A DNA stretch of 56,677 nt, taken from Anaerolineales bacterium (GTDB lineage Bacteria; Chloroflexota; Anaerolineae; Anaerolineales; UBA11858). This document shows positions 2,218 to 24,012 of this stretch, piece by piece; position 1 is the first letter of the stretch, and each line of letters opens with the position of its first letter. Location: the NCBI GenBank assembly GCA_016783125.1, contig JADHXE010000002.1, positions 1 to 56,677 on the forward strand, in the 5' to 3' direction. The notes below the pieces were generated by a model. The model was given only the letters and a program-made list of their open reading frames with translations, had not been told where the DNA came from and searched no databases. The position numbers and the translations under genes were made by a program.

Positions 2218-2846
2218 GCGAATTGGATTTTTATTTAAAGGTTCTAAAGGCGCTTGATCAAATAGATGCTCCTTACATGATAGTTGGTGCATTTGCGGGC
2301 TATGCATTTGGTCTTACTCGTGTTACTTTGGATATTGACATTCTTGTTGAATTAAGAGAAGAGCATTATGATGTGCTCGCCGAATTATTCCCCTTACCGC
2401 GCTACTATGCGGACCCTGGGATGATGCGTAATTCTACTCAAATGGGCATTATGTTCAATTTGATCGATACAGAAGAAGGGGTAAAGGCTGATTTAGTTCC
2501 CCTCACGAGGGAACCAGAATATCGTATTGCCTTCAACCGGAGGATTCGTCGAATATTCAAAGATGCTTCTGGTGATACCTTCGAGGCAATGTGCGCTCAA
2601 CCAACTGACATCATTATTGGAAAACTCAAAGCTTGGACTGAGGGGCAGTCGAACAAACATCCACAGGATATTTTTAAACTCGTAGTGTTTTATCTAAGTG
2701 GTTTGAGTGATATACCAATTGACATTGACAATGTCACATCTGAGGCTAAAAAAATGGGAGAATCTGCTGCGACACTTTGGCGAGATATTGTTACCCGTGC
2801 TAAAAGAGAGGTCATGCAGCATGAGGAGGAAGCGAAGAATGGCTGA
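2214..2846 (+). CDS. Nucleotidyltransferase-fold protein (Pol-beta/MNT-like superfamily)
   Basis: N-terminal motif IVGAFAGYAFGLTRVTLDIDILV (G-A/S...D-x-D signature of minimal nucleotidyltransferases); lower GC than its neighbours by eye. Confidence 0.6.
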   Translation: MSELDFYLKVLKALDQIDAPYMIVGAFAGYAFGLTRVTLDIDILVELREEHYDVLAELFPLPRYYADPGMMRNSTQMGIMFNLIDTEEGVKADLVPLTREPEYRIAFNRRIRRIFKDASGDTFEAMCAQPTDIIIGKLKAWTEGQSNKHPQDIFKLVVFYLSGLSDIPIDIDNVTSEAKKMGESAATLWRDIVTRAKREVMQHEEEAKNG

Positions 2847-4662
2847 AAAATCCATTGCTGAACGAACTCAAGAATTAGTCAACGTCGCCATGGGGCGCGA
2901 CCCAGCTGATATGGTCATCCAGAACGGACAATGGGTCAGCGTTCAATCCGGCGAAATCATTCCTGACACGGATATTGCCATCAAAGATCAGCGCATTGCC
3001 TATGTTGGCCCTGATGCATCTCATACAATTGGTGACAACACAAAGGTTATCGATGCCGATGGGCGCTATCTCGTCCCTGGGTTATTAGATGCGCATATGC
3101 ATGTTGAGTCTGGCATGGTCACTGTGACGGAGTTTGTGCGGGCTGTGGCCCGGCGCGGCACTACGGGGATGTTCATCGACCCCCATGAACTCGCTAATGT
3201 TTTGGGGCTGAAGGCCGTCAAGTTGATGGTGGATGAAGCCGCCGAGCAGCCCATCCATGTTTGGGTGCAAATGCCTGCGTGTGCGCCTTCTTCTCCAGGC
3301 TTGGAAACCCCCGGTTCCAGCATTAGCGTTGAGAATGTGGCTGAGGCGATGGGATGGGATGGCATTATTGGCCTAGGCGAGATGATGAATTTTCCTGATG
3401 TGATCAACAGCGGCGAAAAAATGCACGCTGAGATGGCTGAGACGCGTGCGGTTGGGAAAGTCATCGGTGGGCATTATGCTTCGCCAGATTTGGGTCTGCC
3501 TTTCCACGGCTATGTGGCTGGCGGCCCCGAAGATGAACACGAAGGCACCCGTAAGGAAGACGCCATCGCCCGCGCACGCCAGGGTATGAAAGTCATGATG
3601 CGATTTGGTTCTGCCTGGCATGATGTTGCCGCCCAGGTGCGGGCTGTCATTGATGATGGGCTTGACCCTCGACATTTCCTCCTTTGCACAGATGATTCTC
3701 ACTCCCAAACGCTGGTCGCGGATGGGCATATGGATCGGGTAGTACGTCACGCAATCGAGCAAGGGCTTGAGCCTATTACCGCTATCCAGATGGCGACCTT
3801 GAATACGTCAGAACACTTTGGGTTGACGCGCGAAATAGGTATGATTGCCCCCGGGCGTTATGCTGATATTTTATTGGTCAGGAACCTCTCTGAATTCCAG
3901 GCCGAGAAAGTCATTGCCAAAGGGCAGGTCATCGCTGAAGGTGGCGAATTGCTGATTGAACTGCCTTCCTTCAAATATCCAGAATGGGCAACCACGTCGG
4001 TGCATCTGGGAAAAGAATTGACTGCCGACGATTTCAAACTTCCTGTCTTCGGTCATCCATCTTCTGTCGTTGCAAACGTCATCGGTGTGATCGAGAACCA
4101 GGCCCCAACCAATCATCTGCGCATAGAGGTGCAGGCCAAAGATGGCGAAGTTGTTTTACCCCCCCTCTGTCCCCCCCGCTTGCGGGGGGGAAGTGAAGGG
4201 GGGGTAGCCAAGATCGCCTTGGTGGAGCGGCACAAGGGCACAGGTGATGTGATCGTGGGCCTGGTGCACGGCTTTGGATTTTCGGAACGCTGCGCGATTG
4301 GTACAACCGTGGCTCATGACAGCCATCACATGATCGTCGTAGGAACAAGCGAAGTCGACATGGCGAGAGCGGCAAACCTGTTAGGGGAGATCCAAGGCGG
4401 CCAGGTGGTCATCAAGGATGGTCAGGTGATTGGCCAGGTCGAGTTGCCCATCGCCGGCTTGATGTCTGATGAGCGCGCTGAAGTTGTTGCTGAGAAAGCC
4501 GCAACTGTGCTGGAAGGTTTCAAGGCTTGCGGCTGCCTGCTCAATAATCCCAATATGCAGCTCAGCTTGTTGGCCCTGGTAGTGATCCCGGAGCTGCGGA
4601 TTTCCGACCTGGGTCTGGTCGATGTAACCAAATTCGAGTTTATACCAGTATTGGAAGAGTAA
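2839..4662 (+). CDS. ade: Adenine deaminase (paralog 1)
   Basis: LVPGLLDAHMHVES metal site, GEMMNFPDV, C-terminal VAHDSHHMIVVG...LPIAGLMS domain. ATG at 2839 chosen because the 2707 extension in the ORF track overlaps the previous gene. Confidence 0.85.
   Translation: MAEKSIAERTQELVNVAMGRDPADMVIQNGQWVSVQSGEIIPDTDIAIKDQRIAYVGPDASHTIGDNTKVIDADGRYLVPGLLDAHMHVESGMVTVTEFVRAVARRGTTGMFIDPHELANVLGLKAVKLMVDEAAEQPIHVWVQMPACAPSSPGLETPGSSISVENVAEAMGWDGIIGLGEMMNFPDVINSGEKMHAEMAETRAVGKVIGGHYASPDLGLPFHGYVAGGPEDEHEGTRKEDAIARARQGMKVMMRFGSAWHDVAAQVRAVIDDGLDPRHFLLCTDDSHSQTLVADGHMDRVVRHAIEQGLEPITAIQMATLNTSEHFGLTREIGMIAPGRYADILLVRNLSEFQAEKVIAKGQVIAEGGELLIELPSFKYPEWATTSVHLGKELTADDFKLPVFGHPSSVVANVIGVIENQAPTNHLRIEVQAKDGEVVLPPLCPPRLRGGSEGGVAKIALVERHKGTGDVIVGLVHGFGFSERCAIGTTVAHDSHHMIVVGTSEVDMARAANLLGEIQGGQVVIKDGQVIGQVELPIAGLMSDERAEVVAEKAATVLEGFKACGCLLNNPNMQLSLLALVVIPELRISDLGLVDVTKFEFIPVLEE
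4157..4206. repeat. GC-rich palindrome inserted in frame inside ade paralog 1
   Basis: ta-C7-tctgt-C7-gcttgc-G7-aagtgaa-G7-ta; encodes LPPLCPPRLRGGSEGGV, where paralog 2 has a shorter unrelated segment. Confidence 0.8.
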
Positions 4663-4689
4663 CAACCTGTGCTGTAATGTACTGATCCG

Positions 4690-5406
4690 ATGACTGATTT
4701 TAGCCGTTCTGAACAACTGCATAACCAACTTGAGGCGATTATCTCCCTGGCCGACGCAGGCCAACGCTTGCCCTCGGAGCCGCGTTTAGCTGAACAATTA
4801 GGTGTATCGCGCGCCACATTGCGCGAAGCCATGCGCACCTTCGAAACGCAGGGCCTGCTCCGCCGCCGTCAGGGCGTGGGGACTTTTGTCGTCCGTCCAA
4901 CTCAGGTGATCGATAGCGGCCTGGAAGTTCTTGAGAGTATCGAAAGCCTGTCTGACAGGATTGGGCTGCCGGTGGCAATGGGCGATTTCCAACTGGTTGA
5001 TTGTGAAGCGGATGAGGTTGTTGCGGAGAAGTTGAAAGTGGAGCCAGGCTCGAAAGTGCAGCGCATCTCGCGTGTCATTATGGCCGATGACCGTCCGGTC
5101 GCCTTTTTAGTTGATACCCTTCGTCTAGGTTTGCTTGTCTCCGAGGAGGTCGGAGATGAGTTTACAGGCTCAGTTTTAGATATTCTGCTAAATCGCGGCG
5201 ATCCCGTCCTGGGGCACTCGCGCTGTGAGATCAATGCTGTTGCCGCCGCCTCTGATGTGGCCCGCGCCCTGGATATCCAACGCGGTGATTCGGTGCTGCG
5301 TTTTGTGTCGCTGCTTTTTAGTAAAGATGGCGAGCCGGTTGATTATTCGTTCAGTTATTTCTTGCCCGGTTATTTCCGGTTTCATGTCGTCAGGAGAGTA
5401 GGTTGA
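4690..5406 (+). CDS. GntR-family transcriptional regulator, HutC/UTRA subfamily
   Basis: N-terminal wHTH LPSEPRLAEQLGVSRATLREAMRTFETQGLLRRRQGVGTFV; about 160-aa UTRA-like C-terminal domain. Confidence 0.85.
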   Translation: MTDFSRSEQLHNQLEAIISLADAGQRLPSEPRLAEQLGVSRATLREAMRTFETQGLLRRRQGVGTFVVRPTQVIDSGLEVLESIESLSDRIGLPVAMGDFQLVDCEADEVVAEKLKVEPGSKVQRISRVIMADDRPVAFLVDTLRLGLLVSEEVGDEFTGSVLDILLNRGDPVLGHSRCEINAVAAASDVARALDIQRGDSVLRFVSLLFSKDGEPVDYSFSYFLPGYFRFHVVRRVG

Positions 5407-5424
5407 CGTTCAGGTGTTACGAAA

Positions 5425-5458
5425 TACGCAATACGGATTACGTTTCACGTATTGCGTA
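5425..5458. repeat. Stem-loop between the gntR-like gene and the first carbamoyltransferase gene
   Basis: tacgcaatacg (5425-5435) pairs perfectly with cgtattgcgta (5448-5458), 12-nt loop; embedded in 8-nt-period low-complexity sequence; no T-run. Confidence 0.6.
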
Positions 5459-5504
5459 AACTGATTACCAATACTAAATTATCATATTTTAAGGAGTAAA
5501 TAAA

Positions 5505-6458
5505 ATGCGTAGTTTTGCAGGTCGTGACATTCTTTCTTTGAAAGACTTTGAGCGTAATGAGTTCTTCCGTGTCTTCGAAATTGCTGAAGAGTTGGAACCT
5601 ATCGCTCGCAATCGCCGCAACACTGATCTTCTGAAAGAGAAGACTCTGGTGACGGCGTTCTATCAACCCAGCACTCGCACCCGTCTGGCACATGAGGCAG
5701 CTATGATCCGTCTTGGCGGCCAGGTGACCGGCTTCGCTGATGCAAAGATGACCCGTGCTGGCGATTTCTACCAAGAGTCCATCAAAGACACCGTCAAAAT
5801 GTTGGAGTTCTATGGTGATGTGATCGTTATGCGGCACTTCCAACAGGGCGCGCCTCACGAAGCTGCCAAATGGGCTTCGGTGCCGATCATTAATGGCGGT
5901 GATGGTTGGGGCGAACACCCCACCCAGATACTGACCGACTTCTACACGGTGATGCGCGAAAAAGGCCGCCTCGATGGCCTCAAGTGGCTGGCTGTCGGCG
6001 ATATGCGCATGCGTACTATGCACTCACTGGCCTATGGTTTGACCCAGTTTGATTGCCCGATCACTTTCGTTTCCCCGGAAGACCAGCGTTTGACGGATGA
6101 AATGAAGGTTGACTTGAAGAATTTCAGCCTTGATTTCAAGGAAGTCGAGCATGTCGAGCAGGCCATCGCGGATGCTGATGTCATCCTGGTCGAGCCGGTT
6201 GTGCAGCCTGATTACACTAAATCCCGTGACGAGCGTGATGGTGATGTCGATCTGACCCCGGCAAACTTCAAGATCACCCGCGATCTGCTTGTCAATAAAG
6301 CCAAATCGGATGCAATCTTGCTGCACTCCCTGCCCCGCATGGACGAGATTCCTCCTGATGTGGACATCACCCGCTGGTCCCGCTACTGGCAAGAAGCCTT
6401 CAATGGCGTTGTCATGCGCATGACGCTGCTGGCGTTGGTTTTGGGGAAGATGGAATAA
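5505..6458 (+). CDS. Aspartate-carbamoyltransferase-like carbamoyltransferase (non-canonical substrate site)
   Basis: STRTR, HPTQ, and ATCase-type C-terminus LHSLPRMDEIPPDVD...LLALVLG. The TRVQKER aspartate-binding segment is replaced by EPVVQPD (alignment by eye); AAGGAG RBS. Confidence 0.7.
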   Translation: MRSFAGRDILSLKDFERNEFFRVFEIAEELEPIARNRRNTDLLKEKTLVTAFYQPSTRTRLAHEAAMIRLGGQVTGFADAKMTRAGDFYQESIKDTVKMLEFYGDVIVMRHFQQGAPHEAAKWASVPIINGGDGWGEHPTQILTDFYTVMREKGRLDGLKWLAVGDMRMRTMHSLAYGLTQFDCPITFVSPEDQRLTDEMKVDLKNFSLDFKEVEHVEQAIADADVILVEPVVQPDYTKSRDERDGDVDLTPANFKITRDLLVNKAKSDAILLHSLPRMDEIPPDVDITRWSRYWQEAFNGVVMRMTLLALVLGKME

Positions 6459-6468
6459 ATCAGGAATC

Positions 6469-6533
6469 AGTAGATTGGTAAATTGGTAACTTGGGAAGAC
6501 CTAATCTACCAATTCCCGATTTGCCAATCTACT
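6469..6533 (+). repeat. Long imperfect hairpin built from the same repeat units that flank the four-helix-bundle gene at 7597-8052 (apparently empty stem)
   Basis: Left arm agtagattggtaaattggtaacttgggaaga pairs with right arm taatctaccaattcccgatttgccaatctact (first 18 positions paired, including 2 G-U). gtagattggtaaattggta (6470-6488) is the exact reverse complement of 8085-8103; cctaatctaccaat occurs at 6500-6513 and 8070-8083. Confidence 0.8.
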
Positions 6534-6552
6534 ATTTTACAGGAGACTAAAA

Positions 6553-7533
6553 ATGCAAAGTGATCTTCGCAATCGTGATTTGATAGGGGATCTCGACTTC
6601 AGCAAAGAAGAAGTCGAAACTATTTTAGACGTGGCCTGGGACCTGAAGCGCAAACGCGCCCTCGGAGAATCCCACGCTTACTTGCGCGATAAAGTGCTGG
6701 CGATGTTGTTCTTCTTCTCCAGCACGCGCACACGCGGTTCTTTCGAGGCGGGTATGGCCCAATTGGGTGGTCATGCTGCTTTTATCGAGAGCCGCACAAC
6801 CCAGATTTCCCACGGCGACACTGAGACAGAAATGGGTGAAATCTTCGGCCGTTATTTCGATGGTATCGCCATCCGCCATGTGGACTGGGGCATTGGTAAT
6901 CGCTATCTCAACCTGGTTGCCAGCGCCTCGCGCGTCCCGGTGCTCAACATGCAGTGCGAAATCTACCATCCGCACCAATGCCTGGCTGACCTGATGACCA
7001 TCATGGAGAAGAAAGGCCGTGATTTACGACGCAAGAAGATGGTCGTATCCTGGGCCTATGCTTCTTCGTACCTGAAACCGATGTCCGTGCCACAGTCGCT
7101 CATTTTACAAATGCCGCGCTTCGGTCTGGACGTGGTTTTGGCACATCCGCCGGAATTCAAGCTGATGCCTGAGATCATGGAACAAGCCGAAGAGCAGGCG
7201 CGTAAAGCCGGCGCAGGTTTCGAAGTCACTGATGATATGGAAGAAGCCTTCAAAGACGCTGACATCATCTACGCAAAGTCCTGGGGCCCCTTGATGACCA
7301 CTCATGATCCCGCAGAAGGCAAGGTTATTCAGGATAAATATCAGAGCTGGATCACCGATCAGCGCAAGATGTCTCTGGCGAAAGAAGACGCCATCTATAT
7401 GCACCCGCTGCCCGCCGACCGTGATGTTGAAGTCACCAGCGAAGTCATGGATGGGCCAAATTCGGTTGTCTTCGATGAGGCCGAAAACCGCATGCATGCT
7501 CAAAAGGCTGTCATGGCGTTGACGATGAGGTAA
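6553..7533 (+). CDS. YgeW-like carbamoyltransferase (OTC/ATC superfamily, catabolic type)
   Basis: SSTRTR, HPHQCLADL, YMHPLPAD, plus segments I recall as YgeW-typical (TQISHGDT; SWAYASSYLKPMSVPQS; EEAFKDADIIYAKSWGP); AGGAG RBS. Confidence 0.7.
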   Translation: MQSDLRNRDLIGDLDFSKEEVETILDVAWDLKRKRALGESHAYLRDKVLAMLFFFSSTRTRGSFEAGMAQLGGHAAFIESRTTQISHGDTETEMGEIFGRYFDGIAIRHVDWGIGNRYLNLVASASRVPVLNMQCEIYHPHQCLADLMTIMEKKGRDLRRKKMVVSWAYASSYLKPMSVPQSLILQMPRFGLDVVLAHPPEFKLMPEIMEQAEEQARKAGAGFEVTDDMEEAFKDADIIYAKSWGPLMTTHDPAEGKVIQDKYQSWITDQRKMSLAKEDAIYMHPLPADRDVEVTSEVMDGPNSVVFDEAENRMHAQKAVMALTMR

Positions 7534-7535
7534 AG

Positions 7536-7591
7536 TTGGGAAACTGGGAAACTGGGAAACTGGTAGATTGGGCATCGGTATTTGGTGGAGG
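7536..7591. repeat. G/T-rich 8-nt-period array forming the left flank of four-helix-bundle cassette 1
   Basis: ttgggaaa ctgggaaa ctgggaaa ctggtaga ttgggcat cggtattt ggtggagg. tggtagattgg (7561-7571) is the exact reverse complement of ccaatctacca at 8079-8089 and 8095-8105. Confidence 0.85.
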
Positions 7592-7596
7592 CAGAT

Positions 7597-8052
7597 GTGA
7601 CAACGAAAGGGCAACGCGGTTTTGAAGATTTGGAATGTTATCAATTGGCATTGCAGGTTTTGAAAGAGGCTTATCGCGTGGCGGATCGTTTGCCTGTTGA
7701 AGAAAAATACAATTTGGCAAACCAAATGCACTGGGCAGCGACCAGTGTGATTTTGAATATCGCAGAAGGGTATGGACGTTTTCACTATTTGGATACTTTG
7801 CGGTTTTATTATATTGCGCGCGGCTCTCTCAATGAAACCTTGAGCGCGTTTATCGTTTGTAAAGAGCTGCAATACACACAAGGCGAAATTCAGCAACAAC
7901 GTGAACTTTGTCACAGCGCGCTGCGTTCGCTAAATGGATATATCCGTTACGTTCGTAAGCAGCAAAAAGGCCACAAAGAATACGGTGACAGCGCAATCCG
8001 AGAAAACCCCGCTCAATACAGTATTGCCACCCAGCCGCTGTTAGATGAATAA
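7597..8052 (+). CDS. Four-helix-bundle protein (23S rRNA intervening-sequence protein / Avd-like family), copy 1
   Basis: FEDLECYQLA...NQMHWAATSVILNIAEGYGRF...IARGSLNETL matches the family pattern. GTG 7597 is preceded by GGAGG; the ORF track starts at TTG 7582. Confidence 0.8.
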   Translation: MTTKGQRGFEDLECYQLALQVLKEAYRVADRLPVEEKYNLANQMHWAATSVILNIAEGYGRFHYLDTLRFYYIARGSLNETLSAFIVCKELQYTQGEIQQQRELCHSALRSLNGYIRYVRKQQKGHKEYGDSAIRENPAQYSIATQPLLDE

Positions 8053-8115
8053 CCACCCATCCACCAGTTCCTAATCTACCAATCTACCAATTTACCAATC
8101 TACCAATTTACCAAA
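8053..8115. repeat. C/A-rich 8-nt-period array forming the right flank of cassette 1
   Basis: ccacccatccaccagttcctaat, then ctaccaat ctaccaat ttaccaat ctaccaat ttaccaaa (8076-8115); complementary to the left array. Confidence 0.85.
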
Positions 8116-8148
8116 ATACTATCCAGCCATTATTAAGGATCTCAATTT

Positions 8149-9114
8149 ATGACCCAGACTCCCCCAAAAAAACTCGCTGTCGTCGCCATTGGTGGTAACT
8201 CACTAATCAAAGATAAAAAACACAGTACGGTCGAAGACCAATACGAGGCTGCCAAAGAGACAACCTATCATATCGCTGACATGATCGAAGCTGGCTGGGA
8301 TGTTGCCATTGGTCATGGCAATGGTCCCCAGGTTGGCTTTATTTTACGCAGGTCGGAGATTGCGGCCAAAGTTGAAGGGATGCATGAAATCCCCCTGGAA
8401 GTTTGCGGGGCTGATAGCCAGGGCGCGATTGGTTATTCCCTGCAACAGACTTTGCAGAACGAGCTTGCCCGGCGTGGTATCCATAAACCTGTCGCCACCG
8501 TTGTTACCCAGGTGGCGGTAGACTCCAATGATCCCGCTTTTCAGGATCCAGCCAAGCCCATCGGCAGCTTTATGGATGAGAGCGAAGCCTCTACCCGTCA
8601 GGCTGATCTCGGATGGAGCGTGGTGGAAGATGCTGGCCGCGGCTGGCGTCGAGTGGTTCCTTCACCTAAGCCGATAGAAGTCATCGAACTTCCCGCGGTG
8701 AAGGCTCTTCTTCAAGCGGGTACTGCGGTGATCACTGTTGGCGGCGGCGGCATCCCCGTTGTGGATACAGGGGATCGTCAATTCGCCGGGGTTGCTGCTG
8801 TGATCGATAAAGATTTCGCCAGCAGTTTGTTAGCCCGAGAGATCGGCGCTGACCTTCTGCTTATCTCGACTGCTGTTGAGAAGGTAGCTTTGAATTTTGG
8901 TAAGCCCGACGAAAAGTGGATTGATAAAATGACTCTTGCTGAAGCCAAGCAATATCTGGCGGAGGGCACTCACTTTGCCAAAGGGTCCATGGCTCCCAAA
9001 ATCGAAGCCATCATCTGGTTCCTGGAGACTGGCGGTAAGCAGGCGCTGATTACAGACCCTGAAAATATCGGACGCGCTTTGCGCGGCGAAACTGGTACTT
9101 GGATCACGCCCTAG
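8149..9114 (+). CDS. arcC: Carbamate kinase
   Basis: KKLAVVAIGGNSL, GHGNGPQVG, length about 320 aa, AAGGA RBS. Confidence 0.9.
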   Translation: MTQTPPKKLAVVAIGGNSLIKDKKHSTVEDQYEAAKETTYHIADMIEAGWDVAIGHGNGPQVGFILRRSEIAAKVEGMHEIPLEVCGADSQGAIGYSLQQTLQNELARRGIHKPVATVVTQVAVDSNDPAFQDPAKPIGSFMDESEASTRQADLGWSVVEDAGRGWRRVVPSPKPIEVIELPAVKALLQAGTAVITVGGGGIPVVDTGDRQFAGVAAVIDKDFASSLLAREIGADLLLISTAVEKVALNFGKPDEKWIDKMTLAEAKQYLAEGTHFAKGSMAPKIEAIIWFLETGGKQALITDPENIGRALRGETGTWITP

Positions 9115-9250
9115 GTTATAATATCTGTATGAGCTTTTTTCAGGCAAGATGACCTGAGAGAGGAGGTGCCAACCCCAAAAAAATATATCCATATCTCAAT
9201 AAGAATATCGTTCATATTTCTATCAAGTGAAATTTCGGAGGAGTTTAATC

Positions 9251-10510
9251 ATGAAGAATAAAGTGTTTTGGCTTTTTAGTATTTTGCTCATCGCGGCGAT
9301 GCTGCTGACCGCTTGTGGCACCACGGAAGAGGCCCCGGCAGCCGAAGAGCCTGCTGCAGAAGAGCCCGCTGCAGAAGAACCTGCAGAAGCAGGTAGCCTG
9401 CAAATCCCAGATGTTAAAGAAGGCAAATTCAATGTTGCAGTAGTGATGCTCAGCAACCATGATGATGGTGGCTGGTCCCAGGCACAATGGGATGGCATCA
9501 ACTATGTTCAGGATAATGTTGATGGTGTTCACACCGCATACATGGAACTGGTAGCAGAAGGTGCCGATTCCGAGCAGGTATTCCGTGCGCTTTCCCGCAA
9601 GGGGTTTGACCTGATCTTCGGTGGTTCATTCGGCTACATGGACTCCATGGAAGTTGTCGCTGAGGAATTCCCCGAAATTGGGTATGTCCACATCAGCGGC
9701 TACAAGTCCAATATGTCCAACTTCGGCAATCTGTTTGGCGCTATGGAAGATATGAAATACCTGGCCGGGATGTTGGCCGGTTCGCGCGCTGAGGCCGATG
9801 GCGCTGACAAAGTCGGTGGAATGGCTACTTTCACGATTCCCGAAGAGTTTCGCCTGTTCAATGCTTATGCTTTAGGGGTTCAGCAGACTTGCCCAGATTG
9901 TTCAGTGGATATCCGCTGGATCAACACCTGGCATGACCCGATTATCGAGCGTGAAGGTGCAGATTCGCTCTTTGACGCCGGTTCCCATGTTGTCATGACT
10001 GGTGCCGACACGCCCGCCGCTGCTTTGGCTGCCGCGGACCGCGAAGGTGTCTATGGCATCAACTACGACTGGATTGGTGGATGCACCATCGATGCATGCC
10101 TGACCGCCCCCTATTGGGTTTGGGGTCCGGTGTTCGCCGAGATCAGCGAAGCAGCCATGAATGGAACTTATGAGTACGGCTGGCACTACTTCGAGGCCTC
10201 CGACGGTGGTTTGGGCCTCTACGGCTTCATGGAAGGTCAAGAGCCTCAGCCTGGTATTGCTGACCTGCCCGAAGAAGATGTCCAATTGGTACGTGACACG
10301 TTGGCTGCGATGTTGGCTGGCGAGTTCACCCGCTTTGATATCTTCAAAGGCCCCATCACCGACAATAAGGGTGATCTGGTTATCGAAGAGGGCAAGAGCT
10401 TTGAGTACAGCGATATCGACCAATTTGCACCTGGAGCACCCGGCTTGGAATGTGAGTACGGTATGTTCTGGTGGAATGAGAACATTAACGCTGAACTTCC
10501 CGATCTCTAG
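9251..10510 (+). CDS. BMP-family (PnrA/Med-like) ABC substrate-binding lipoprotein, probably nucleoside/purine
   Basis: Signal peptide + lipobox LLTACG, (EEPAA)x4 linker encoded by 15-nt tandem repeats, BMP-like body. ATG 9251 follows GGAGGA; the ORF track starts at GTG 9227. Confidence 0.8.
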   Translation: MKNKVFWLFSILLIAAMLLTACGTTEEAPAAEEPAAEEPAAEEPAEAGSLQIPDVKEGKFNVAVVMLSNHDDGGWSQAQWDGINYVQDNVDGVHTAYMELVAEGADSEQVFRALSRKGFDLIFGGSFGYMDSMEVVAEEFPEIGYVHISGYKSNMSNFGNLFGAMEDMKYLAGMLAGSRAEADGADKVGGMATFTIPEEFRLFNAYALGVQQTCPDCSVDIRWINTWHDPIIEREGADSLFDAGSHVVMTGADTPAAALAAADREGVYGINYDWIGGCTIDACLTAPYWVWGPVFAEISEAAMNGTYEYGWHYFEASDGGLGLYGFMEGQEPQPGIADLPEEDVQLVRDTLAAMLAGEFTRFDIFKGPITDNKGDLVIEEGKSFEYSDIDQFAPGAPGLECEYGMFWWNENINAELPDL

Positions 10511-10526
10511 AAATTAGTGTTTCTCA

Positions 10527-10614
10527 GGGTGACCAGAGCATTCTGGTCACCCAACCCTGCGCGAGCGGACGCATTCTAATCGTCCGCTCGCCACCCCAAT
10601 TCCCTTGAATTGGG
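10527..10614 (+). promoter_or_regulatory. Three consecutive stem-loops downstream of the binding-protein gene (attenuator / mRNA-stabiliser candidate)
   Basis: gggtgaccaga-gcat-tctggtcaccc (10527-10552); gcgagcggacg-cattctaat-cgtccgctcgc (10561-10591); cccaattc-cctt-gaattggg (10595-10614); no T-run after any of them. Confidence 0.55.
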
Positions 10615-10749
10615 AAAAAATCAAAAAGACAGTTTTATTTCCGAATAAACGATTGCAAACCGAGTGCGGGAGCACTGGGAATATTCTCTGCAATTCTCTC
10701 TTTTATTTTTTGCTCTCTCTTCTCCTAATCGAAAGCGGTGCTAATAACT

Positions 10750-12306
10750 ATGAATCAAGAGAAATTGTCTACCGAAACCGAGATTGTTGTCCGCATGAGT
10801 GGCGTTAGCAAGCGCTTCCCAGGCGTATTGGCCAATGATCAAGTTGATTTTGATCTCCGCAAGGGTGAAGTCCACGCCCTTCTAGGCGAGAATGGAGCTG
10901 GAAAAAGCACATTAATGAATGTGCTTGCAGGAATGTATCGCGCCGATGGTGGCACGATCACGGTTCATGATCAATTGGTTGATTTTGGTTCTCCACGTGA
11001 AGCCATTGAGGCAGGTATCGGTATGGTTCACCAGCATTTCATGCTGGTGCCATCCCAAAGTGTGACTGAGAATATCCTGCTTGGGTTAGATGAACCTCGA
11101 TTCAGGATGCATTTACCCCAATACAATCGAAAAATCGAGCAGATGGCTGAGCAATATGGGCTTCATGTTGATCCTGCTGCAAGAATCTGGCAGCTGACCG
11201 TGGGAGAGCAGCAGCGAGTTGAAATCCTGAAAATGCTTTATCGTGGGGCGGATGTCCTCATTATGGATGAGCCTACGGCGGTTTTGGCACCTAGTGAAAT
11301 CGATGAGTTGTTCAACACCCTCCGATCTATGACTGCCCAAGGGAAATCGATTGTGTTCATCAGCCATAAATTGCATGAGGTCATGGATATATCAGATCGC
11401 GTAACGGTTTTGCAAAAAGGGGCAGTGACATCATCGGGTGTCCCCACCGCAGATGTAACCCGTGCTGACCTGGCTCGCATGATGGTTGGGCGTGAAGTTG
11501 TTTTTAGAATTGATAAGAAGGATGTGGAAATCGGGGACGTAGTGCTCTCTGTGGAAGGCCTGAAAGCAGATAACGAGAAAGGCTTACCGGCACTGCGTGG
11601 TGTAGATCTAAATGTGCACGCCGGTGAGATTGTTGGTCTAGCCGGGGTGGCTGGAAATGGACAAAGCGAACTGTCCGAGACACTGGCTGGTTTACGAGAA
11701 GCCTTGGATGGGAAGGTGATGGTTCATGGTGAAGACGTTACCAACAAATCGGTGAAATCAGGAATTCGCCAAGGTATCTCTCTAGTTCCAGCTGATCGCA
11801 CCCTTGTTGGGACTGCGCCCAATTTGAGCGTTACGGACAATGTGATCATGAAGAACTATGATCAATCGCCCATTGGACATGGTTGGATGGTCAACTCCAC
11901 CGAAGCGGGTAATTACGCCACTGAGCTAAAAGATGATTACGATATCATGGTTCCGACCATTGATACCTCAGTCAGATTGCTTTCAGGAGGCAATTTGCAG
12001 AAAGTGATCTTGGCGCGAGAAATATCAAGCGATCCAAAATTGATGATTGCAGTTCAGCCAACCCGTGGCCTGGATGTTGGCGCGATTGAAGGTGTCCAAA
12101 AATTGTTACTCGAACAGCGCGAATCTGGGGCTGCGATTCTGTTGATATCGGAAGAATTAGAAGAGCTCTTGTCTTTGAGTGATCGCATCTATGTCATCTA
12201 TGAAGGGGAGATCATGGGCGAAGTTTTAGATGGCGATATCGATAAAATAGGTCAAATGATGACAGGTACTCGATTGGAGCAGATCGATACCCAAGGAGAT
12301 GCATGA
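10750..12306 (+). CDS. ABC transporter ATP-binding protein with duplicated ATPase domains
   Basis: Walker A GENGAGKST and GVAGNGQSE; signatures LTVGEQQRV and LSGGNLQKV; Walker B LIMDEPT. Confidence 0.9.
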   Translation: MNQEKLSTETEIVVRMSGVSKRFPGVLANDQVDFDLRKGEVHALLGENGAGKSTLMNVLAGMYRADGGTITVHDQLVDFGSPREAIEAGIGMVHQHFMLVPSQSVTENILLGLDEPRFRMHLPQYNRKIEQMAEQYGLHVDPAARIWQLTVGEQQRVEILKMLYRGADVLIMDEPTAVLAPSEIDELFNTLRSMTAQGKSIVFISHKLHEVMDISDRVTVLQKGAVTSSGVPTADVTRADLARMMVGREVVFRIDKKDVEIGDVVLSVEGLKADNEKGLPALRGVDLNVHAGEIVGLAGVAGNGQSELSETLAGLREALDGKVMVHGEDVTNKSVKSGIRQGISLVPADRTLVGTAPNLSVTDNVIMKNYDQSPIGHGWMVNSTEAGNYATELKDDYDIMVPTIDTSVRLLSGGNLQKVILAREISSDPKLMIAVQPTRGLDVGAIEGVQKLLLEQRESGAAILLISEELEELLSLSDRIYVIYEGEIMGEVLDGDIDKIGQMMTGTRLEQIDTQGDA

Positions 12307-14449: not shown

Positions 14450-14506
14450 CCCCGAAAAAAGGGTGCAAGCAGGGGCGCGCTCCTGCCCGCCCCCTTTTTT
14501 TCGGGG
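14450..14506. repeat. Degenerate copy of the palindromic terminator-like repeat
   Basis: ccccgaaaaaaggg...gcagg-loop-cctgc...cccccttttttt-cgggg, between the permease stop and ade paralog 2. Confidence 0.65.
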
Positions 14507-16329: not shown

Positions 16330-16384
16330 CCCCGAAAAAGGGTGTGCGTGGGGATCTACGTCCCCACGCACACCCTTTTTCGGG
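16330..16384. terminator. Canonical copy of the palindromic repeat (bidirectional intrinsic-terminator-like)
   Basis: cccgaaaaagggtgtgcgtgggga-tctacg-tccccacgcacaccctttttcggg: perfect 24-nt arms, GC stem flanked by A5 on the left and T5 on the right. Confidence 0.75.
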
Positions 16385-17804: not shown

Positions 17805-20057
17805 ATGACTGAGGAAACCCTGACGCTTGGCAAATCAGAACTGCGCAAAGATGCCTGGGATAAAGTGACCGGCGCGGCCCAATACGTCGCGGATATTCCC
17901 CTGACCGATCTTTGCCATGCTGTCATTGTGCGTTCGCCGCTTCATTATGGGCGAATCTTGGGTATAAATAAAAGTGCAGCCCAAAATATTCCAGGCGTAT
18001 TGCGCGTGCTGGCTGCTGAAGATATCCCAGGGAATAAGATCTTTGGTCCCCTTCTACAGGACCAACCCTCCCTGGCGATTGACATCGTTCGACATCTTGG
18101 CGAACCAGTCGCCATCGTAATTGCGGATAATCTGGAAACTGCCCGCATGGCCAGTGAATTGGTAAAGGTTGAGTATGAACCCCTTGAGCCGGTTTTCGAC
18201 CCTGGGCAATCCCTGAAGCCTGGGGGGCCTCGGCTGCACCCAGAAGGCAATCTGGCCGCCCAGTTTGATATCCAGGATGGCGATATCGAGGCCGGATTTG
18301 CTGAAGCGGATGTGGTTCTTGAAAATACTTTCTCTGTGCCGCGCATATCACCGGCCTATATGGAGCCTGAAAACTCGCTGGCGCGCTGGAACGAGGATGG
18401 TTTGATTACTGTTTGGGTAAGTTCCCAGCATCCCTTTACCGACCAGGTTTTCATTGCTGATGCATTAGATTTACCGGTCGAGAAGGTGCAGGTAAAAAGT
18501 GCCGTCATAGGCGGCGCTTTTGGCGGCAAAGAAGACTCAAGCCTGGCGATCCTGGCTGCGCTGAGCGCCTGGGCAGTGAGGGGCGCTGTACGTATTGTCA
18601 ATACTCGGAATGAATCCTTCCTGGCGCATCCTAAGCGGCACCCAGCCCTGATCAAGATGAAGCTTGGAGCCAAGCGAGATGGCACACTCGTCGCGTTGCG
18701 AGCCATGTCCCACATGGACACGGGGGCTTATGCCTCTTACGGGCCTGCGGTGGGTATTATTTTCACCGAAACCTTGGCAGGATCGTATCGCATTCCGAAT
18801 GTACACTTCGAGACTTTTGTTGCTTATACCAATAGCCCATTATCAGGCGCGATGCGCGGCTTTGGCAGCCCTCAATCCCACTTTGCGCTTGAAAGTATGT
18901 TGGATATGCTGGCTGCGGAATTAGATATGCATCCCCTTGCCCTGAGGCGAAAAAATATGCTTCGCCCGGGCGATAAAATGTTTACCGGAGTTGTGGTAAA
19001 CGACACTGCAAACAGTTTGCCGATCTGCCTGGATCAGGCCGAAGCTATCATCAAACGTTTCTCACAAATAGAGCCTGCCCCAGGTAAAACCGTTGGGGTT
19101 GGTATGGCCCTGGCCGCCCAATCTATGGGATTGGGGGCCAAAGTCCCCGATGATTCGACCCACCGCCTTGAGTGGAGTCCAGATGGTGATGTGTATGTGC
19201 ATCTCGGCTCGCCAGATATGGGCCAGGGGTTGGCGATGGCTGCTGAACAGGTTACTGCTGAAGCGCTGGGTTTGCCGTATGAAGTTGTGAAAACCATCCC
19301 GCTGGATACCCTGACCTCGCCCAACGGGAACGTGACCTGCGCCTCGCGCATGACTTATATGGTCGGCAATGCCTTGATAGACGCTGCTGACCGCCTGATT
19401 CAGCAGTTGTTGGATGAGGCTGCCAGGATGATGAATTTCCCTCGAGAGCAATTATCCTATCAGGTGGGGAGAGTTGTCTGCCCCGATGGTCAAAAAGTCG
19501 ATGCGGCAGAAATTGCCAGCCGGGTGGCTGATGATGGCCGCACGCTCCAGTGTGAGTCAACTTTTAGCTTTCCTTATCCCGAAGAAACTACGCCACAGCA
19601 TTTGCCGATTGGCATGCCCCACGTGATATTTTGTTTTGGCGCTCAAATTGTTCGCGTAGAAGTCGATCCTGAGATTGGAAATGTTGATGTTACCCATTTG
19701 GTGGCCATCCATGATGTGGGCAGAGTAATCAGTAAGCCGGCTGTGGAGGGCCAGATCGAAGGCGCCGTAGCTACTGGCCTGGGTTATGCGCTCTACGAGG
19801 AGATGCCTCTCAAAGAGCATCAGCAGTGGGTGGATAGTTTTACTGAATATTTGATCCCCACAACCAAAGATGTGCCCTTGAATTATGAAATCATAATCCT
19901 TGAGGTTCCCGAAGCCAGCGGTCCCTATGGCGCTAAGGGCATCGGAGAAATTCCCCTCGTCCCCACTGCGCCTGCCGTAGCGAACGCTGTATACGATGCG
20001 GTTGGCGTGCGGGTGAAATCATTGCCTCTCACGCCTGAAAAATTGATCAAAATATAG
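17805..20057 (+). CDS. Molybdopterin-binding large subunit, xanthine dehydrogenase/aldehyde oxidase family
   Basis: GGAFGGKE, AMRGFGSPQ, KGIGEIPL motifs; 750 aa. Confidence 0.85.
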   Translation: MTEETLTLGKSELRKDAWDKVTGAAQYVADIPLTDLCHAVIVRSPLHYGRILGINKSAAQNIPGVLRVLAAEDIPGNKIFGPLLQDQPSLAIDIVRHLGEPVAIVIADNLETARMASELVKVEYEPLEPVFDPGQSLKPGGPRLHPEGNLAAQFDIQDGDIEAGFAEADVVLENTFSVPRISPAYMEPENSLARWNEDGLITVWVSSQHPFTDQVFIADALDLPVEKVQVKSAVIGGAFGGKEDSSLAILAALSAWAVRGAVRIVNTRNESFLAHPKRHPALIKMKLGAKRDGTLVALRAMSHMDTGAYASYGPAVGIIFTETLAGSYRIPNVHFETFVAYTNSPLSGAMRGFGSPQSHFALESMLDMLAAELDMHPLALRRKNMLRPGDKMFTGVVVNDTANSLPICLDQAEAIIKRFSQIEPAPGKTVGVGMALAAQSMGLGAKVPDDSTHRLEWSPDGDVYVHLGSPDMGQGLAMAAEQVTAEALGLPYEVVKTIPLDTLTSPNGNVTCASRMTYMVGNALIDAADRLIQQLLDEAARMMNFPREQLSYQVGRVVCPDGQKVDAAEIASRVADDGRTLQCESTFSFPYPEETTPQHLPIGMPHVIFCFGAQIVRVEVDPEIGNVDVTHLVAIHDVGRVISKPAVEGQIEGAVATGLGYALYEEMPLKEHQQWVDSFTEYLIPTTKDVPLNYEIIILEVPEASGPYGAKGIGEIPLVPTAPAVANAVYDAVGVRVKSLPLTPEKLIKI

Positions 20058-20070
20058 GAGCACAAACTGC

Positions 20071-21333
20071 ATGAGTAAATTTATTGGTTATCGATGTTCC
20101 GTATGCGAAACAGAATACGGGACTGATGAAGTAACATATACATGCCCGAAAGATGGCGGAAACCTTGATGTAATCTTGGATTATGAGGCTATCAAAAAAT
20201 TATCTGTGGATGATCTGATCTTGAAGGATGAGCCATCTCTGTGGCGTTACCTGCCCCTATTACCTGTCCCTGACCCCGGTGGAAAAGCGACCACCCTTCG
20301 GGCTGCTGGCTGGACCCCTGTGTTTTCCCCTGCTCCCCTGGCGGAGAAACTCGGCCTGCGCCATCTCTACATCAAAGATGAGAGCGGCAATCCCACTGCT
20401 TCGTTCAAAGACCGTGCCAGTGCTGTGCTGATGGCCCGCGCCCGCGAAATTGACGCTGAAATCGTAGTGACCGCCTCCACCGGCAATGCTGGAGCAGCTC
20501 TGGCAGGCATGGCCGCGGCCGTAGGACACAAAGCAGTCATCTTTGCCCCTAAGACCGCACCACCCGCCAAAATCGCCCAACTGCAAATCTTCGGCGCCAA
20601 AGTTTTGCTGGTAGATGGCAATTATGACGCCGCCTTCGATCTCTCTGTACAGGCCTCCCAAGAATTTGGCTGGTACTGTCGCAATACGGGCTATAACCCT
20701 TTTACTGCTGAAGGCAAGAAGACCGCCGCGTTTGAGATTTGGGAACAAGTGATTAGAGATCAGATATTAGATATTAGAGATTCAATACCCAATATCCAAT
20801 ACCCTCTATCAATCTTCGTTTCAGTGGGCGACGGCAATATCATTTCAGGTATCCACAAAGGTTTCAAGGACCTGCTCGAACTTGGCCTGATCGAAAGTAT
20901 GCCGCGTATCTTCGGCGTGCAGTCAACCGAGTCCTCTGCGATAGCTAATGCCTTCAATGCTGGCACTGAGGAGATCAAACCTGTCAGCGCCACCACCCGC
21001 GCCGACAGCATCTCTGTGGATATGCCCCGAGATGGCCTGCGCGCCTTGCGAGCTGCCACCCAAACCGGCGGGGCTTATATAACCGTCCCCGATGATGAGA
21101 TCATTGCTGCTATCGCTGAGCTGGGCAAAGTTGGTATCTTTGCCGAACCGGCTGGCGCAACCTCCTACGCCGGATTAGTCAAAGCAGTCAACGATGGCTT
21201 GATCGGTCCGGATGATCCCGTGGTTGTGATGAACACTGGCAGCGGACTCAAAGATGTCAAAGCCGCCATGCAGGCTGCGGGCGAAGCCCCAATCATCGAG
21301 CCAACTCTGGAGGCCGTAAGGCGCTTGTTGTAA
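20071..21333 (+). CDS. Threonine-synthase-family PLP enzyme with N-terminal zinc ribbon
   Basis: CSVC...CPKDGG ribbon and PTASFKDRAS lysine motif; starts 13 nt after the molybdoenzyme gene, so probably co-transcribed. Confidence 0.7.
   Translation: MSKFIGYRCSVCETEYGTDEVTYTCPKDGGNLDVILDYEAIKKLSVDDLILKDEPSLWRYLPLLPVPDPGGKATTLRAAGWTPVFSPAPLAEKLGLRHLYIKDESGNPTASFKDRASAVLMARAREIDAEIVVTASTGNAGAALAGMAAAVGHKAVIFAPKTAPPAKIAQLQIFGAKVLLVDGNYDAAFDLSVQASQEFGWYCRNTGYNPFTAEGKKTAAFEIWEQVIRDQILDIRDSIPNIQYPLSIFVSVGDGNIISGIHKGFKDLLELGLIESMPRIFGVQSTESSAIANAFNAGTEEIKPVSATTRADSISVDMPRDGLRALRAATQTGGAYITVPDDEIIAAIAELGKVGIFAEPAGATSYAGLVKAVNDGLIGPDDPVVVMNTGSGLKDVKAAMQAAGEAPIIEPTLEAVRRLL
20751..20814. repeat. AT-rich low-complexity quasi-palindrome inserted in frame in the ThrC-like gene
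   Basis: gattagagatcagatattagatattagagatt / caatacccaatatccaataccctctatcaatc. Encodes IRDQILDIRDSIPNIQY between the conserved EQ and the PxxxxVxVGxGN segments, where canonical threonine synthases have about 4-5 residues. Confidence 0.65.
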
Positions 21334-21350
21334 CATCGGTTGTAGTATCT

Positions 21351-21616
21351 ACCACGAAGGACACAAAGAAACACTAAGAAAGAACAAAAAACTGTAGTTG
21401 TCAACATAACCTTATACACTTGTCATTCTGAACGGAGCGCAGCGGAGTGAAGAATCCCTGAATCTAAACATCGAATGTACCTGTGCAGGTGGAAAACCAA
21501 ACCGCGTTGTGGGGATTCCTCACTTCGTTCGGAATGACAACTTGAGTGGTAGTTCGAGCCACTCTTGGCTAATACAGACAGATCAAAAACCTTCGTGAAC
21601 CTTAGTGTTCTTAGCG
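21351..21616. repeat. Nested inverted repeats filling a 300-bp intergenic region
   Basis: Outer arrays of degenerate 8-9-nt units (cacgaagg/acacaaag/aacactaag at 21351-21385 versus ccttcgtg/cttagtgtt at 21590-21616). Inner arms ttgtcattctgaacg...agtgaagaatccc (21420-21458) versus ggggattcctcacttcgttcggaatgacaa (21511-21540). Confidence 0.7.
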
Positions 21617-21634
21617 TTTTGATTTTGGTTTTTT

Positions 21635-22735
21635 ATGGATCAGCAAAGAGTATGGAGTAAAGAATCACGCTATCTTGCCTTGGTGGGCTTGATCGTAATC
21701 CTGGTTGGTCTGGTCTGGTATTTCAGAGCTGTGATCAACCCGGTTGCCATTGCGGCCATCCTGGCCTATTTGCTCTATCCTGTCGTCAGATTCTTATCTG
21801 TCCGCACTCGCCTCTCCCACCGTGCAGCGGTGGTGATTGTGTATATATTAGCTCTGGTTCTCATGGTGTCGACACCAGTGATCATTGTGCCCACAGCTGT
21901 AAATCAGATCCGCATATTATCTCAAAATCTAGAATCCTTGATTACCCATTACGGGGAGTTGCTTGATACAACAGCTCATTTCATGAATTGGACGTTTACC
22001 TGGGGAGAGTTTCTTCCGGAAATCCCTGTCATATCAACGGATATGTTCACTCCTTTTGCGGAGAGCGCTTTCGCTATCGTGGGATTTTTGACCAAGAACT
22101 TCATGTGGGTGTTGGTCATCCTGGTAAGTTTTTATTACTTTTTGCAAGATGGACATCGCCTGGGGGAAACCATTGTACGCCTGGCTCCAGAGTCGCATCG
22201 CGAGGATGTGCGTCAAATCCTCACCCGTCTGAGTTATATCTGGTCTGATTATATGCGCAGCCAACTGGCTTTTATGTTTGCTGTTGGTTTGATGGACTCT
22301 GTGGCCTGGTTGGCGATAGGATTGCCCGGCGCTATATTTCTGGGACTCTTCACCGGGCTGACCAGCTTTGTCCATGAGATTGGCGCTGTCGTATCTGGCG
22401 TGCTGTCTGTTTTGGTGGCGTTGCTGGAAGGTTCCAACTTCCTCGATATGTCGAAATTCTGGTTTGCGGTGGTGGTGTTCATTCTTTATATGATCCTTAC
22501 CGGTATAAAAAATATCTGGCTGCGTCCCATCATCGTCGGACGAACGGTTCATGTTCATCCCGGCATTGTTTTCGTGGTTGTTATTGGGGCTTTGGTATTC
22601 CATGGCGCTTTGGCGGCATTTTTGGCAGTGCCAGCGCTGTTGACATTCTGGGAGATTGGCAAGTATCTGCGTCGCCGGGCGCTTGGATTGCCTCCATTCC
22701 CTGATGAAATAGAAGAAAACCCCGAAGAAAGGTAG
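21635..22735 (+). CDS. AI-2E (PerM/UPF0118) family membrane transporter
   Basis: 366-aa polytopic protein with the family's typical topology and C-terminal hydrophilic tail. Confidence 0.7.
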   Translation: MDQQRVWSKESRYLALVGLIVILVGLVWYFRAVINPVAIAAILAYLLYPVVRFLSVRTRLSHRAAVVIVYILALVLMVSTPVIIVPTAVNQIRILSQNLESLITHYGELLDTTAHFMNWTFTWGEFLPEIPVISTDMFTPFAESAFAIVGFLTKNFMWVLVILVSFYYFLQDGHRLGETIVRLAPESHREDVRQILTRLSYIWSDYMRSQLAFMFAVGLMDSVAWLAIGLPGAIFLGLFTGLTSFVHEIGAVVSGVLSVLVALLEGSNFLDMSKFWFAVVVFILYMILTGIKNIWLRPIIVGRTVHVHPGIVFVVVIGALVFHGALAAFLAVPALLTFWEIGKYLRRRALGLPPFPDEIEENPEER

Positions 22736-22754
22736 CTCTCATAGCGAGGAATTC

Positions 22755-22810
22755 CGAAAAAATGGGTGTGCGTGGGGGGCGTACACCCCCCACGCACACC
22801 CATTTTTTCG
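22755..22810. terminator. Copy of the palindromic terminator-like repeat
   Basis: cgaaaaaatgggtgtgcgtgggggg-cgtaca-ccccccacgcacacccattttttcg, 20 nt after the stop codon. Confidence 0.75.
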
Positions 22811-22851
22811 ATCTCTCAGTCTGAGGCCGAATGGTACGAAGAAAGTAGAAA

Positions 22852-23790: not shown

Positions 23791-23793
23791 ACC

Positions 23794-24012
23794 CAGGGCA
23801 ATCGCATATGGATTGTTAGCTCCGATCTCGGCGACTGAAAGTCGCAGCAACAGTTGCGAAACCTGCCTGGCCGGAGGCCCGCAAGGCGCGCAGGTTGAAT
23901 TCCAGTCGCCGAAGGGCGACTTCGCAAATGTTGGTGCAGTTCCGCCTATGGCGTGCGCCCCTACGGGGCAACTGCCGCATTATCTATAAAGTGTCTAAAT
24001 GCGATTGCCCTG
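23794..24012. mobile_element. 219-bp MITE-like non-autonomous element with perfect TIRs and a target-site duplication
   Basis: TIRs cagggcaatcgcat (23794-23807) / atgcgattgccctg (23999-24012). 10-bp direct repeat caattgaacc on both sides (23784-23793, which contains the GT2 stop codon, and 24013-24022). GC-rich core with many short hairpins and no credible ORF. Confidence 0.8.

Follow-up and report, generated by a model that had tools for sequence, protein, structure and literature searches.

We analyzed a 56,677-nt stretch of DNA from an Anaerolineales bacterium (contig JADHXE010000002.1 of assembly GCA_016783125.1, positions 1 to 56,677 of the forward strand; hereafter called the window) in which a small gene of the four-helix-bundle family PF05635 is enclosed by complementary repeat arrays and lies between a carbamoyltransferase gene and a carbamate kinase gene. 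From 5′ to 3′, the element is made up of an array of G-rich units (≈ 8 nt each), a Shine–Dalgarno sequence, the PF05635 open reading frame (ORF) and an array of complementary C-rich units. Taken together, the orientation, arm order, unit period and arm–protein covariation of such elements, the selection on their proteins and the different genomic sites occupied by close relatives show that the arm–gene–arm element relocates over evolutionary time, survives only where it is transcribed in the sense direction and leaves gene-less hairpins. It is likely, in our view, that the element is a selfish mobile cassette of the rRNA intervening-sequence type residing in the spacer of an mRNA operon, and that solo hairpins are its gene-less derivatives. 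The element (cassette 1) and a solo hairpin 1 kb upstream of it have the following parts:

6469–6533 (+): solo, gene-less hairpin of GGTAGATT-family 8-nt units (5′ arm 6469–6497, 3′ arm 6500–6533)
7534–7596 (+): 5′ arm of cassette 1, a G-rich 8-nt array (GGGAAACT three times, GGTAGATT and degenerate units; Tandem Repeats Finder (TRF) and inverted-repeat pairs I1, I2 and I9)
7597–8052 (+): four-helix-bundle gene, 151 aa, GTG start, PF05635 / TIGR02436 (profile matches)
8053–8115 (+): 3′ arm of cassette 1, a C-rich array (AATCTACC × 5.2) after CCACCCATCCACC (TRF, inverted repeats and co-folding)

The positions of arrays, repeats and hairpin given in the original prediction, which was made from the sequence of the window, all agreed with the DNA base for base. 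TRF located 8-nt arrays at 6470–6494, 7536–7572 and 8073–8114. The motif tggtagattgg (7561–7571) is the reverse complement of ccaatctacca at 8079–8089 and 8095–8105, and the base of the cassette carries ggtgg (7584–7588) and ccacc (8053–8057). According to the repeat finder, an arm pair of 36 nt (7536–7571 and 8079–8114) is 81% complementary, and the 21-nt arms of the solo hairpin are 86% complementary. Hairpin and cassette also match each other: gtagattggtaaattggta (6470–6488) is the reverse complement of 19 nt in the cassette 3′ array (8085–8103), and the 14-nt sequence cctaatctaccaat occurs in direct orientation in both (6500–6513 and 8070–8083). The pattern TACCAATYTACCAAT, with three or fewer mismatches allowed, was found 15 times (2.3 expected), and 13 of the 15 occurrences fell in three places, namely the solo hairpin and the two arms.

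Folding gave a minimum free energy (MFE) of − 32 kcal/mol for the solo hairpin (z = − 5.45; segment 6455–6550), which occupies most of the spacer between an aspartate-carbamoyltransferase-like gene and the carbamoyltransferase gene. Co-folding of the cassette 1 arms yielded − 46.6 kcal/mol and 38 intermolecular pairs (z = − 4.9). In this co-fold, the GGTGGAGG stretch pairs with the CCACC.. that immediately follows the stop codon. The 5′ array runs into the Shine–Dalgarno sequence GGAGG (7587–7591, 5 bases before the GTG start), and the base helix covers this Shine–Dalgarno sequence of the cassette.

The gene at 7597–8052 matched PF05635 (23S rRNA intervening-sequence protein; Pfam, E = 1.4e-25) and the NCBIfam model TIGR02436 (E = 8.7e-26). 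Its product also matched PDB entry 2GSC (E = 7e-12), the pentameric four-helix-bundle protein XCC0516. We found 939 homologues of the 151-aa protein, the best of which (66–76% identity) were from Anaerolineae/Chloroflexota. An AlphaFold2 model, built from a shallow alignment of 27 sequences, was all-helical and of low confidence (pLDDT 48.6). The ratio of nonsynonymous to synonymous substitution rates (dN/dS) was ≈ 0.09–0.11 for the window gene versus its relatives at loci L001 and L003, and the median over the four-helix-bundle ORFs was 0.09; the cassette proteins are under purifying selection. No Rfam family reached the gathering score anywhere in the window, which contains no rRNA, and a scan for promoter and terminator signals found none above chance.

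We then asked how general the layout is. A scan of species-representative genomes with the window protein gave > 569 relatives, from which 80 loci were taken and 110 nt on each side of the gene were read. The complementary-array layout was present at nearly all of these loci. The sequence of the unit varied by clade, and the complementarity between the two arms was retained:

Close Anaerolineae relatives: 5′ unit GGTAGATT, 3′ unit AATCTACC
More distant Anaerolineales: 5′ unit GTAGACAC, 3′ unit GTGTCTAC
Bacteroidota, Chlorobiota, Ignavibacteria and others: GGTTAA-type, GGTAAT-type and GAAAATAG-type units

To quantify this, we scored local complementarity between the 150-nt flanks of 78 homologues and of 340 other ORFs at the same loci. 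The median score was 19.5 for the homologues and 7.5 for the controls (p = 1.8e-30), and 79% of the homologues lay above the 95th percentile of the controls. Thus, other members of the gene family do carry complementary flanks, as the original prediction had anticipated, and its reading of the element as an intervening-sequence-like cassette within an mRNA operon holds as an architecture across the family. Local low complexity was rejected as an account of the flanks, since the arrays show a strong association with the gene family. RNAduplex energies computed on 120-nt flanks separated the groups weakly (medians − 60 and − 46) and were dominated by G + C content; the local complementarity score was used instead. 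The top-scoring "controls" turned out to be further PF05635 genes and two GxxExxY PD-(D/E)XK genes (TIGR04256).

Starting from the arrays rather than the genes, 152 of the 361 short-period arrays in 1.14 Mb flanked a four-helix-bundle gene and 83 formed solo hairpins. Pairs of complementary arrays spaced 150–2500 nt apart enclosed a four-helix-bundle gene in 63 of 89 cases. Unit periods ranged from 7 to 9 nt, 8 being the commonest. Between co-directional neighbours the gene was always in the sense orientation (59 sense, 0 antisense), and the leading arm was G-rich in 77 cassettes and C-rich in none. The G-first arrangement is identical on both strands and is therefore a property of the element, not of gene direction. 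Neither a YAGAY or GTAG core nor stop codons in all three frames accounted for the unit sequence, since neither is true of all unit types.

Protein identity correlated with the k-mer similarity of the arms (Mantel r = 0.44, reached in 0 of 999 permutations). Cassettes with divergent proteins had unrelated arms even when they were present in one genome. The nearest protein relative was located at a different genomic site for 34 of 70 cassettes, and within the GTAGACAC clade the inner boundary, from the last unit to the Shine–Dalgarno sequence, was similar across sites when compared by eye. The arrays are thus part of the element: they vary in step with the protein lineage and accompany it from one genomic site to another.

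A second cassette in the window was discovered blind, as a high-scoring "control" gene in the test of flank complementarity:

26238–26318 (+): 5′ arm, a 9-nt in-frame array (GAGCCAGAA; TRF, sequence and ORF)
26353–26727 (+): second four-helix-bundle gene, 124 aa (PF05635, E = 1e-34; TIGR02436, E = 3e-33)
26728–26775 (+): 3′ arm (CTTTTGGCTCCTCTGGTTCC...), complementary to the 9-nt array (sequence and co-folding)

The protein it encodes is 29% identical to the first. Co-folding of the 5′ arm with 26728–26790 gave − 50 kcal/mol and 24 bp (z = − 3.1). The 5′ array doubles as coding sequence for the acidic, EPE-rich tail of the upstream ORF (25680–26339), and the cassette precedes an ORF of 473 aa. 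At another place in the window (20751–20804), abutting 7-nt arrays (GATTAGA × 4.6 and CAATACC × 3.1) lie in frame inside a 420-aa ORF (20071–21333) and may be an array fragment absorbed into the coding region.

The operon that hosts cassette 1 allowed the same junctions to be compared among close relatives. Its genes are:

5505–6458 (+): host gene, aspartate carbamoyltransferase-like, the first of a conserved three-gene block (Pfam OTCace_N and OTCace; TIGR00670 above cut-off)
6553–7533 (+): host gene, carbamoyltransferase of the ornithine/aspartate carbamoyltransferase family (Pfam, NCBIfam; 80 orthologues at 83–94% identity)
8149–9114 (+): host gene, carbamate kinase (NF009007 and TIGR00746 above cut-offs)

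The second gene had been labelled YgeW-like in the original prediction. That label is not sustained: the best NCBIfam matches were ornithine / N-acetylornithine carbamoyltransferase models, and the YgeW models scored lower and far below cut-off. Pfam and NCBIfam annotated the surrounding stretch (2707–12306) with an adenine deaminase, a GntR regulator, the two carbamoyltransferases, the carbamate kinase and parts of a Bmp-family ABC transporter. This stretch and a second one (17805–28209), with large ORFs at 17805–20057 and 26788–28209, contain the two cassettes.

A metagenome scan with the carbamoyltransferase retrieved these 80 operons, in all of which the three genes and their order are the same. 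The carbamoyltransferase–carbamate kinase junction was scored in 73 of them and the junction upstream of the carbamoyltransferase in 68. The former was tight (0–25 nt) in 50 operons, carried a solo hairpin (32–225 nt, with many different unit types) in 19 and a four-helix-bundle gene in 4. The proteins filling this junction were 71%, 51%, 47% and ≈ 30% identical to that of the window, whereas the host carbamoyltransferases were 83–86% identical. In three filled operons (the window, L096 and L135) the nearest carbamoyltransferase relatives had tight junctions; the nearest relative of the filled operon L155 was the solo-hairpin operon L137. L155 and L137 have nearly identical host flanks, shared AGC(G/A)AGAGC arms and carbamoyltransferases that are 95% identical. 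At this junction, the array begins inside the last codons and stop of the host gene (ATG AGC TAG AGC...).

The upstream junction measured ≤ 36 nt in 25 operons and 54–226 nt, mostly hairpins, in 36. It held full four-helix-bundle genes in L092, L137 and L157 and truncated ORF remnants in L096, L108 and L126. The four-helix-bundle genes found at this position in relatives were of a different lineage and had different arms. At the downstream junction of L108, the solo hairpin retains "aaggaggcaggtgtg" from a lost gene of the GTAGACAC clade, comprising its ribosome-binding site and GTG start. Given this retained start and the truncated ORFs of L096, L108 and L126, the solo hairpins look mainly like gene-less derivatives. 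Elements of this type have been gained and lost at orthologous junctions of close relatives. The mobility proposed originally is therefore borne out on the evolutionary time scale by orthologous presence and absence, by the occurrence of different lineages at one junction and by nearest relatives at different sites. The further proposal that the hairpin at 6469–6533 and cassette 1 form an empty and a filled site was right in that the two share a unit family; the true empty state, however, is the tight junction without a hairpin (50 of 73), and the hairpin at 6469–6533 is a solo derivative of the GGTAGATT family.

Other hairpins and inverted repeats were seen in the window and in the loci of relatives. 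Locus L090 contains four intercistronic hairpins within ≈ 5 kb (200–430, 2755–2945, 3895–3995 and 4985–5165), three of which are made of CACAGATT / CGCAGATT units; in two of the four, a hairpin of a different unit is nested in the loop, and MFE values go down to − 107.6 kcal/mol. Near-perfect palindromes of ≈ 50 bp (CGAAAAAGGGTGTGCGTGGGG / CCCCACGCACACCCTTTTTCG) occur in the window at 14450–14505, 16331–16384, 22755–22810, 29125–29177, 30371–30428, 35506–35570 and 45884–45940, with a variant at 33291–33330. They resemble repetitive extragenic palindromic (REP) elements or bidirectional terminators, and the palindrome recurs in L096, nested in a decayed cassette. The window also contains long imperfect intergenic inverted repeats at 35474–35603 and 44862–44982, the former of which encloses a REP-like palindrome and is followed by a 13-nt direct repeat (35596–35621).

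Several observations weigh against reading the element as a mobile cassette with a paired transcript. Pfam and NCBIfam detected only the four-helix-bundle domain in the protein, with no transposase, nuclease or recombinase domain, and PADLOC gave no hit. The identical cassette was found at one site only, in 10 contigs with 100% identical flanks, and so shows no sign of recent movement; since it is identical in all 10, the copy number of its arrays does not vary between strains. Comparison of filled, solo and tight junctions revealed no target-site duplication, although the divergence and shortness of the junctions leave room for one of 2–4 bp. The covariation of protein and arms could stem from simple co-inheritance instead of recognition. 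Turning to the stem, that of cassette 1 is interrupted by many internal loops, its longest helix in the co-fold being ≈ 11 bp. There was no excess of G:U pairs over A:C mismatches (108 versus 134, p = 0.11), and sense and antisense folds were equally stable (− 37.0 and − 36.2 kcal/mol for 50 solo hairpins; − 48.2 and − 48.0 kcal/mol for 96 cassettes). Within a clade, the arms of a cassette paired no better with each other than with those of other cassettes (17.5 versus 16.0, p = 0.12). The stem thus reflects the type of unit as such, and the two arms show no co-evolution position by position. What is maintained, therefore, is an inverted unit motif on both sides, from which the complementarity follows. 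A working RNA stem is compatible with the null signatures, because Watson–Crick pairs are strand-symmetric and many solo hairpins of relatives have near-perfect stems of 30–40 bp.

These results bear on how the element should be explained. One alternative is an RNA processing module, in which the long-range stem serves mainly as a target at which RNase III cleaves the polycistronic mRNA to either side of the four-helix-bundle cistron; cleavage would excise the cassette mRNA, as in rRNA, and set the stability of the flanking cistrons. The enclosure of the ORF by complementary arms, the strictly sense position within operons, the excision by RNase III of the homologous Coxiella intervening sequence and the near-perfect stems of the solo hairpins all fit such a module. 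The G:U and folding-asymmetry tests, the uncoordinated arms and the imperfect stem of cassette 1 do not, and they left the processing site put forward in the original prediction unsupported. Moreover, a cut would uncouple and probably destabilize the downstream host cistron, and processing leaves gain and loss, relocation and protein–arm covariation unexplained. We regard this account as possible but rather doubtful. Somewhat less likely still is the converse order of events, in which the periodic hairpins move on their own as miniature elements, the four-helix-bundle genes are mobile in their own right and home into hairpin loops, and 6469–6533 is an unfilled target. Many solo hairpins do occur without a four-helix-bundle gene close by (L090, for example, has three of one unit type in 6 kb), hairpins are nested in hairpins, and L155 and L137 differ in loop content only. 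It is also established that rRNA intervening sequences lie in hairpin loops. However, the remnants of ORFs or of a ribosome-binding site and start inside solo hairpins show that deletion makes some of them; within a clade, the boundary between arm and Shine–Dalgarno sequence seems to be preserved from site to site, the type of arm goes with the lineage of the protein even inside a single genome, and most orthologous junctions have no hairpin at all. For the associated claim that the gene targets such hairpins, what support there is remains circumstantial and comes from the nested hairpins.

A function for the gene in the carbamoyl-phosphate operon, such as that of a regulator or chaperone, with arrays that are ordinary intergenic low complexity, has been largely refuted and seems very improbable. 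Its place in the operon, sense orientation and purifying selection would suit an accessory gene, as would the presence of a four-helix-bundle gene at the same junction in 19 genome loci. Yet the gene is missing from 69 of the 73 close orthologous operons, the occupants of the junction belong to unrelated four-helix-bundle lineages, the same cassettes are found in unrelated operons, and the arrays go with the gene family. We give even less credence to the gene being an Avd accessory protein of a diversity-generating retroelement (DGR). PF05635 proteins and Avd have a common fold, and the second gene of the window weakly matched the DGR Avd model (E = 1.8e-7; 31 bits versus a cut-off of 80). The first gene did not match this model, and the annotated neighbours function in metabolism, regulation and transport, with no reverse transcriptase among them (no search for template and variable repeats was made). 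A selfish mobile cassette with gene-less derivatives is thus the reading that we favour.

The closest known counterparts of such a cassette are the ORF-bearing 23S rRNA intervening sequences of Leptospira, Coxiella and Xanthomonas (S23p), whose proteins belong to the same family, PF05635. In these, too, terminal inverted repeats close a loop around the ORF, short tandem repeats occupy a purine-rich region on the 5′ side, the orientation is sense within a transcribed host unit and the distribution is sporadic. The Coxiella sequence carries three to four tandem GACAGAT heptamers, variable in copy number, ahead of the S23p ORF (PMC4990558). Its 28-bp terminal stem is cut by RNase III mid-stem, the 5′ cut lying at the start of the first heptamer repeat (PMC4990558). 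The rRNA elements differ in being located in an rRNA helix (25 or 45), whereas cassette 1 lies in the spacer of a polycistronic mRNA between carbamoyltransferase and carbamate kinase; the Coxiella ORF is decaying, whereas the cassette protein is under strong purifying selection; and excision by RNase III has been shown for rRNA intervening sequences, whereas for the cassette it would be by analogy. The protein family and the stem-loop architecture of rRNA intervening sequences are therefore known, and the cassette lacks their defining rRNA location.

A REPtron consists of a gene for a REP-associated tyrosine transposase (RAYT) flanked by inverted REPs, with solo REPs (REPINs) dispersed elsewhere (PMC3733652). 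The likeness to the cassettes extends to a small gene between inverted copies of a short repeat that is also abundant alone as intergenic hairpins, to a repeat type specific to the gene lineage and to expression that is probably by read-through (PMC3733652). RAYT, however, is an HUH tyrosine transposase, whereas the four-helix-bundle protein has no known catalytic motif, and the gene at 7597–8052 matched no Y1 (HUH) transposase in Pfam or NCBIfam. REPtrons also use single palindromes, in contrast to the tandem arrays of 7–9 nt units seen here, and the cassettes exist in multiple copies and lie inside operons.

Miniature inverted-repeat transposable elements (MITEs), such as Neisseria Correia/NEMIS and enterobacterial ERIC, are transcribed into mRNAs and cut by RNase III; they carry no coding sequence and originate from transposons that have canonical transposases. 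Like the solo hairpins, they are intergenic or intercistronic inverted repeats that form long hairpins in host transcripts and show presence/absence polymorphism. Here, in contrast, a coding "parent" element exists, and it encodes only a four-helix-bundle or GxxExxY protein. Compared with transposons and MITEs, the cassettes have inverted repeats common to coding and non-coding copies, insertion polymorphism and relocation, and lack a recognisable transposase or recombinase. Cyanobacterial short tandemly repeated repetitive (STRR) heptamers likewise form tandem arrays of 7–8 nt in intergenic DNA; to our knowledge, STRRs have not been reported to form inverted pairs of arrays on either side of one particular gene family. 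As to the protein itself, the homologous four-helix-bundle fold of Avd, a cofactor that binds nucleic acid and reverse transcriptase, suggests by analogy that the cassette protein may bind nucleic acid.

We propose the following model of how a selfish mobile cassette might persist in an operon. At the DNA level, the inverted arrays serve as terminal repeats. In the transcript, they would pair and close the cassette into a stem-loop, which could bring the stop codon of the upstream host gene beside the ribosome-binding site of the next gene and so keep the flanking cistrons close. The stem may at the same time mask the Shine–Dalgarno sequence of the cassette itself. By closing and masking, the stem would let the insert do little harm, as it does in rRNA. 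Cutting of the stem by RNase III is plausible by analogy. Since the cassette is always sense between co-directional genes, it probably relies on the host operon for transcription by read-through. Because the type of arm follows the lineage of the protein, the four-helix-bundle protein, which is homologous to Avd (itself a nucleic-acid binder), probably recognises and binds its own repeated unit. Hairpin loops may be preferred landing sites, as the nested hairpins and the L155/L137 pair would allow.

The architecture is shared by a second, unrelated family of small proteins, since the two GxxExxY PD-(D/E)XK genes (TIGR04256 / PF13366; L055:2005–2409 and L042:2123–2527) have complementary arms of their own (CCACAGAGAACACAGAG... 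/ ...CTCTGTGG). It is tempting, if speculative, to imagine that PF05635 genes, and in parallel GxxExxY genes, constitute a large class of autonomous "hairpin cassettes" that have no canonical transposase. The protein of such a cassette would recognise its own 7–9 nt unit and drive insertion of arm–gene–arm DNA, always sense and possibly via an RNA or hairpin-DNA intermediate, into intercistronic spacers, into the loops of hairpins and into rRNA helices; the dispersed periodic hairpins would be its miniature derivatives. If so, the classical rRNA intervening sequences would be the visible tip of this class.

PF05635-family genes have been described inside cas operons and in rRNA insertions of bacteria of the candidate phyla radiation (CPR). 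Our literature search brought up no account of inverted periodic arrays around non-rRNA cassettes, of a sense-only rule or of solo-hairpin derivatives. The same type of element is now seen in ordinary operons across several bacterial phyla, and it obeys rules that can be tested: it is sense only, its G-rich arm comes first, its arm type goes with the protein lineage, it has gene-less hairpins, and its junctions exist in filled, solo and tight states. What was an anecdote thereby becomes a tractable system: binding of a short repeat by the protein is predicted, and natural filled/solo pairs are available for mobility and RNase III assays. Such cassettes may explain the presence of four-helix-bundle genes inside cas and other operons. 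In the genomes of Chloroflexota and Bacteroidota, they may also be the source of some intercistronic hairpins and short-period tandem arrays.

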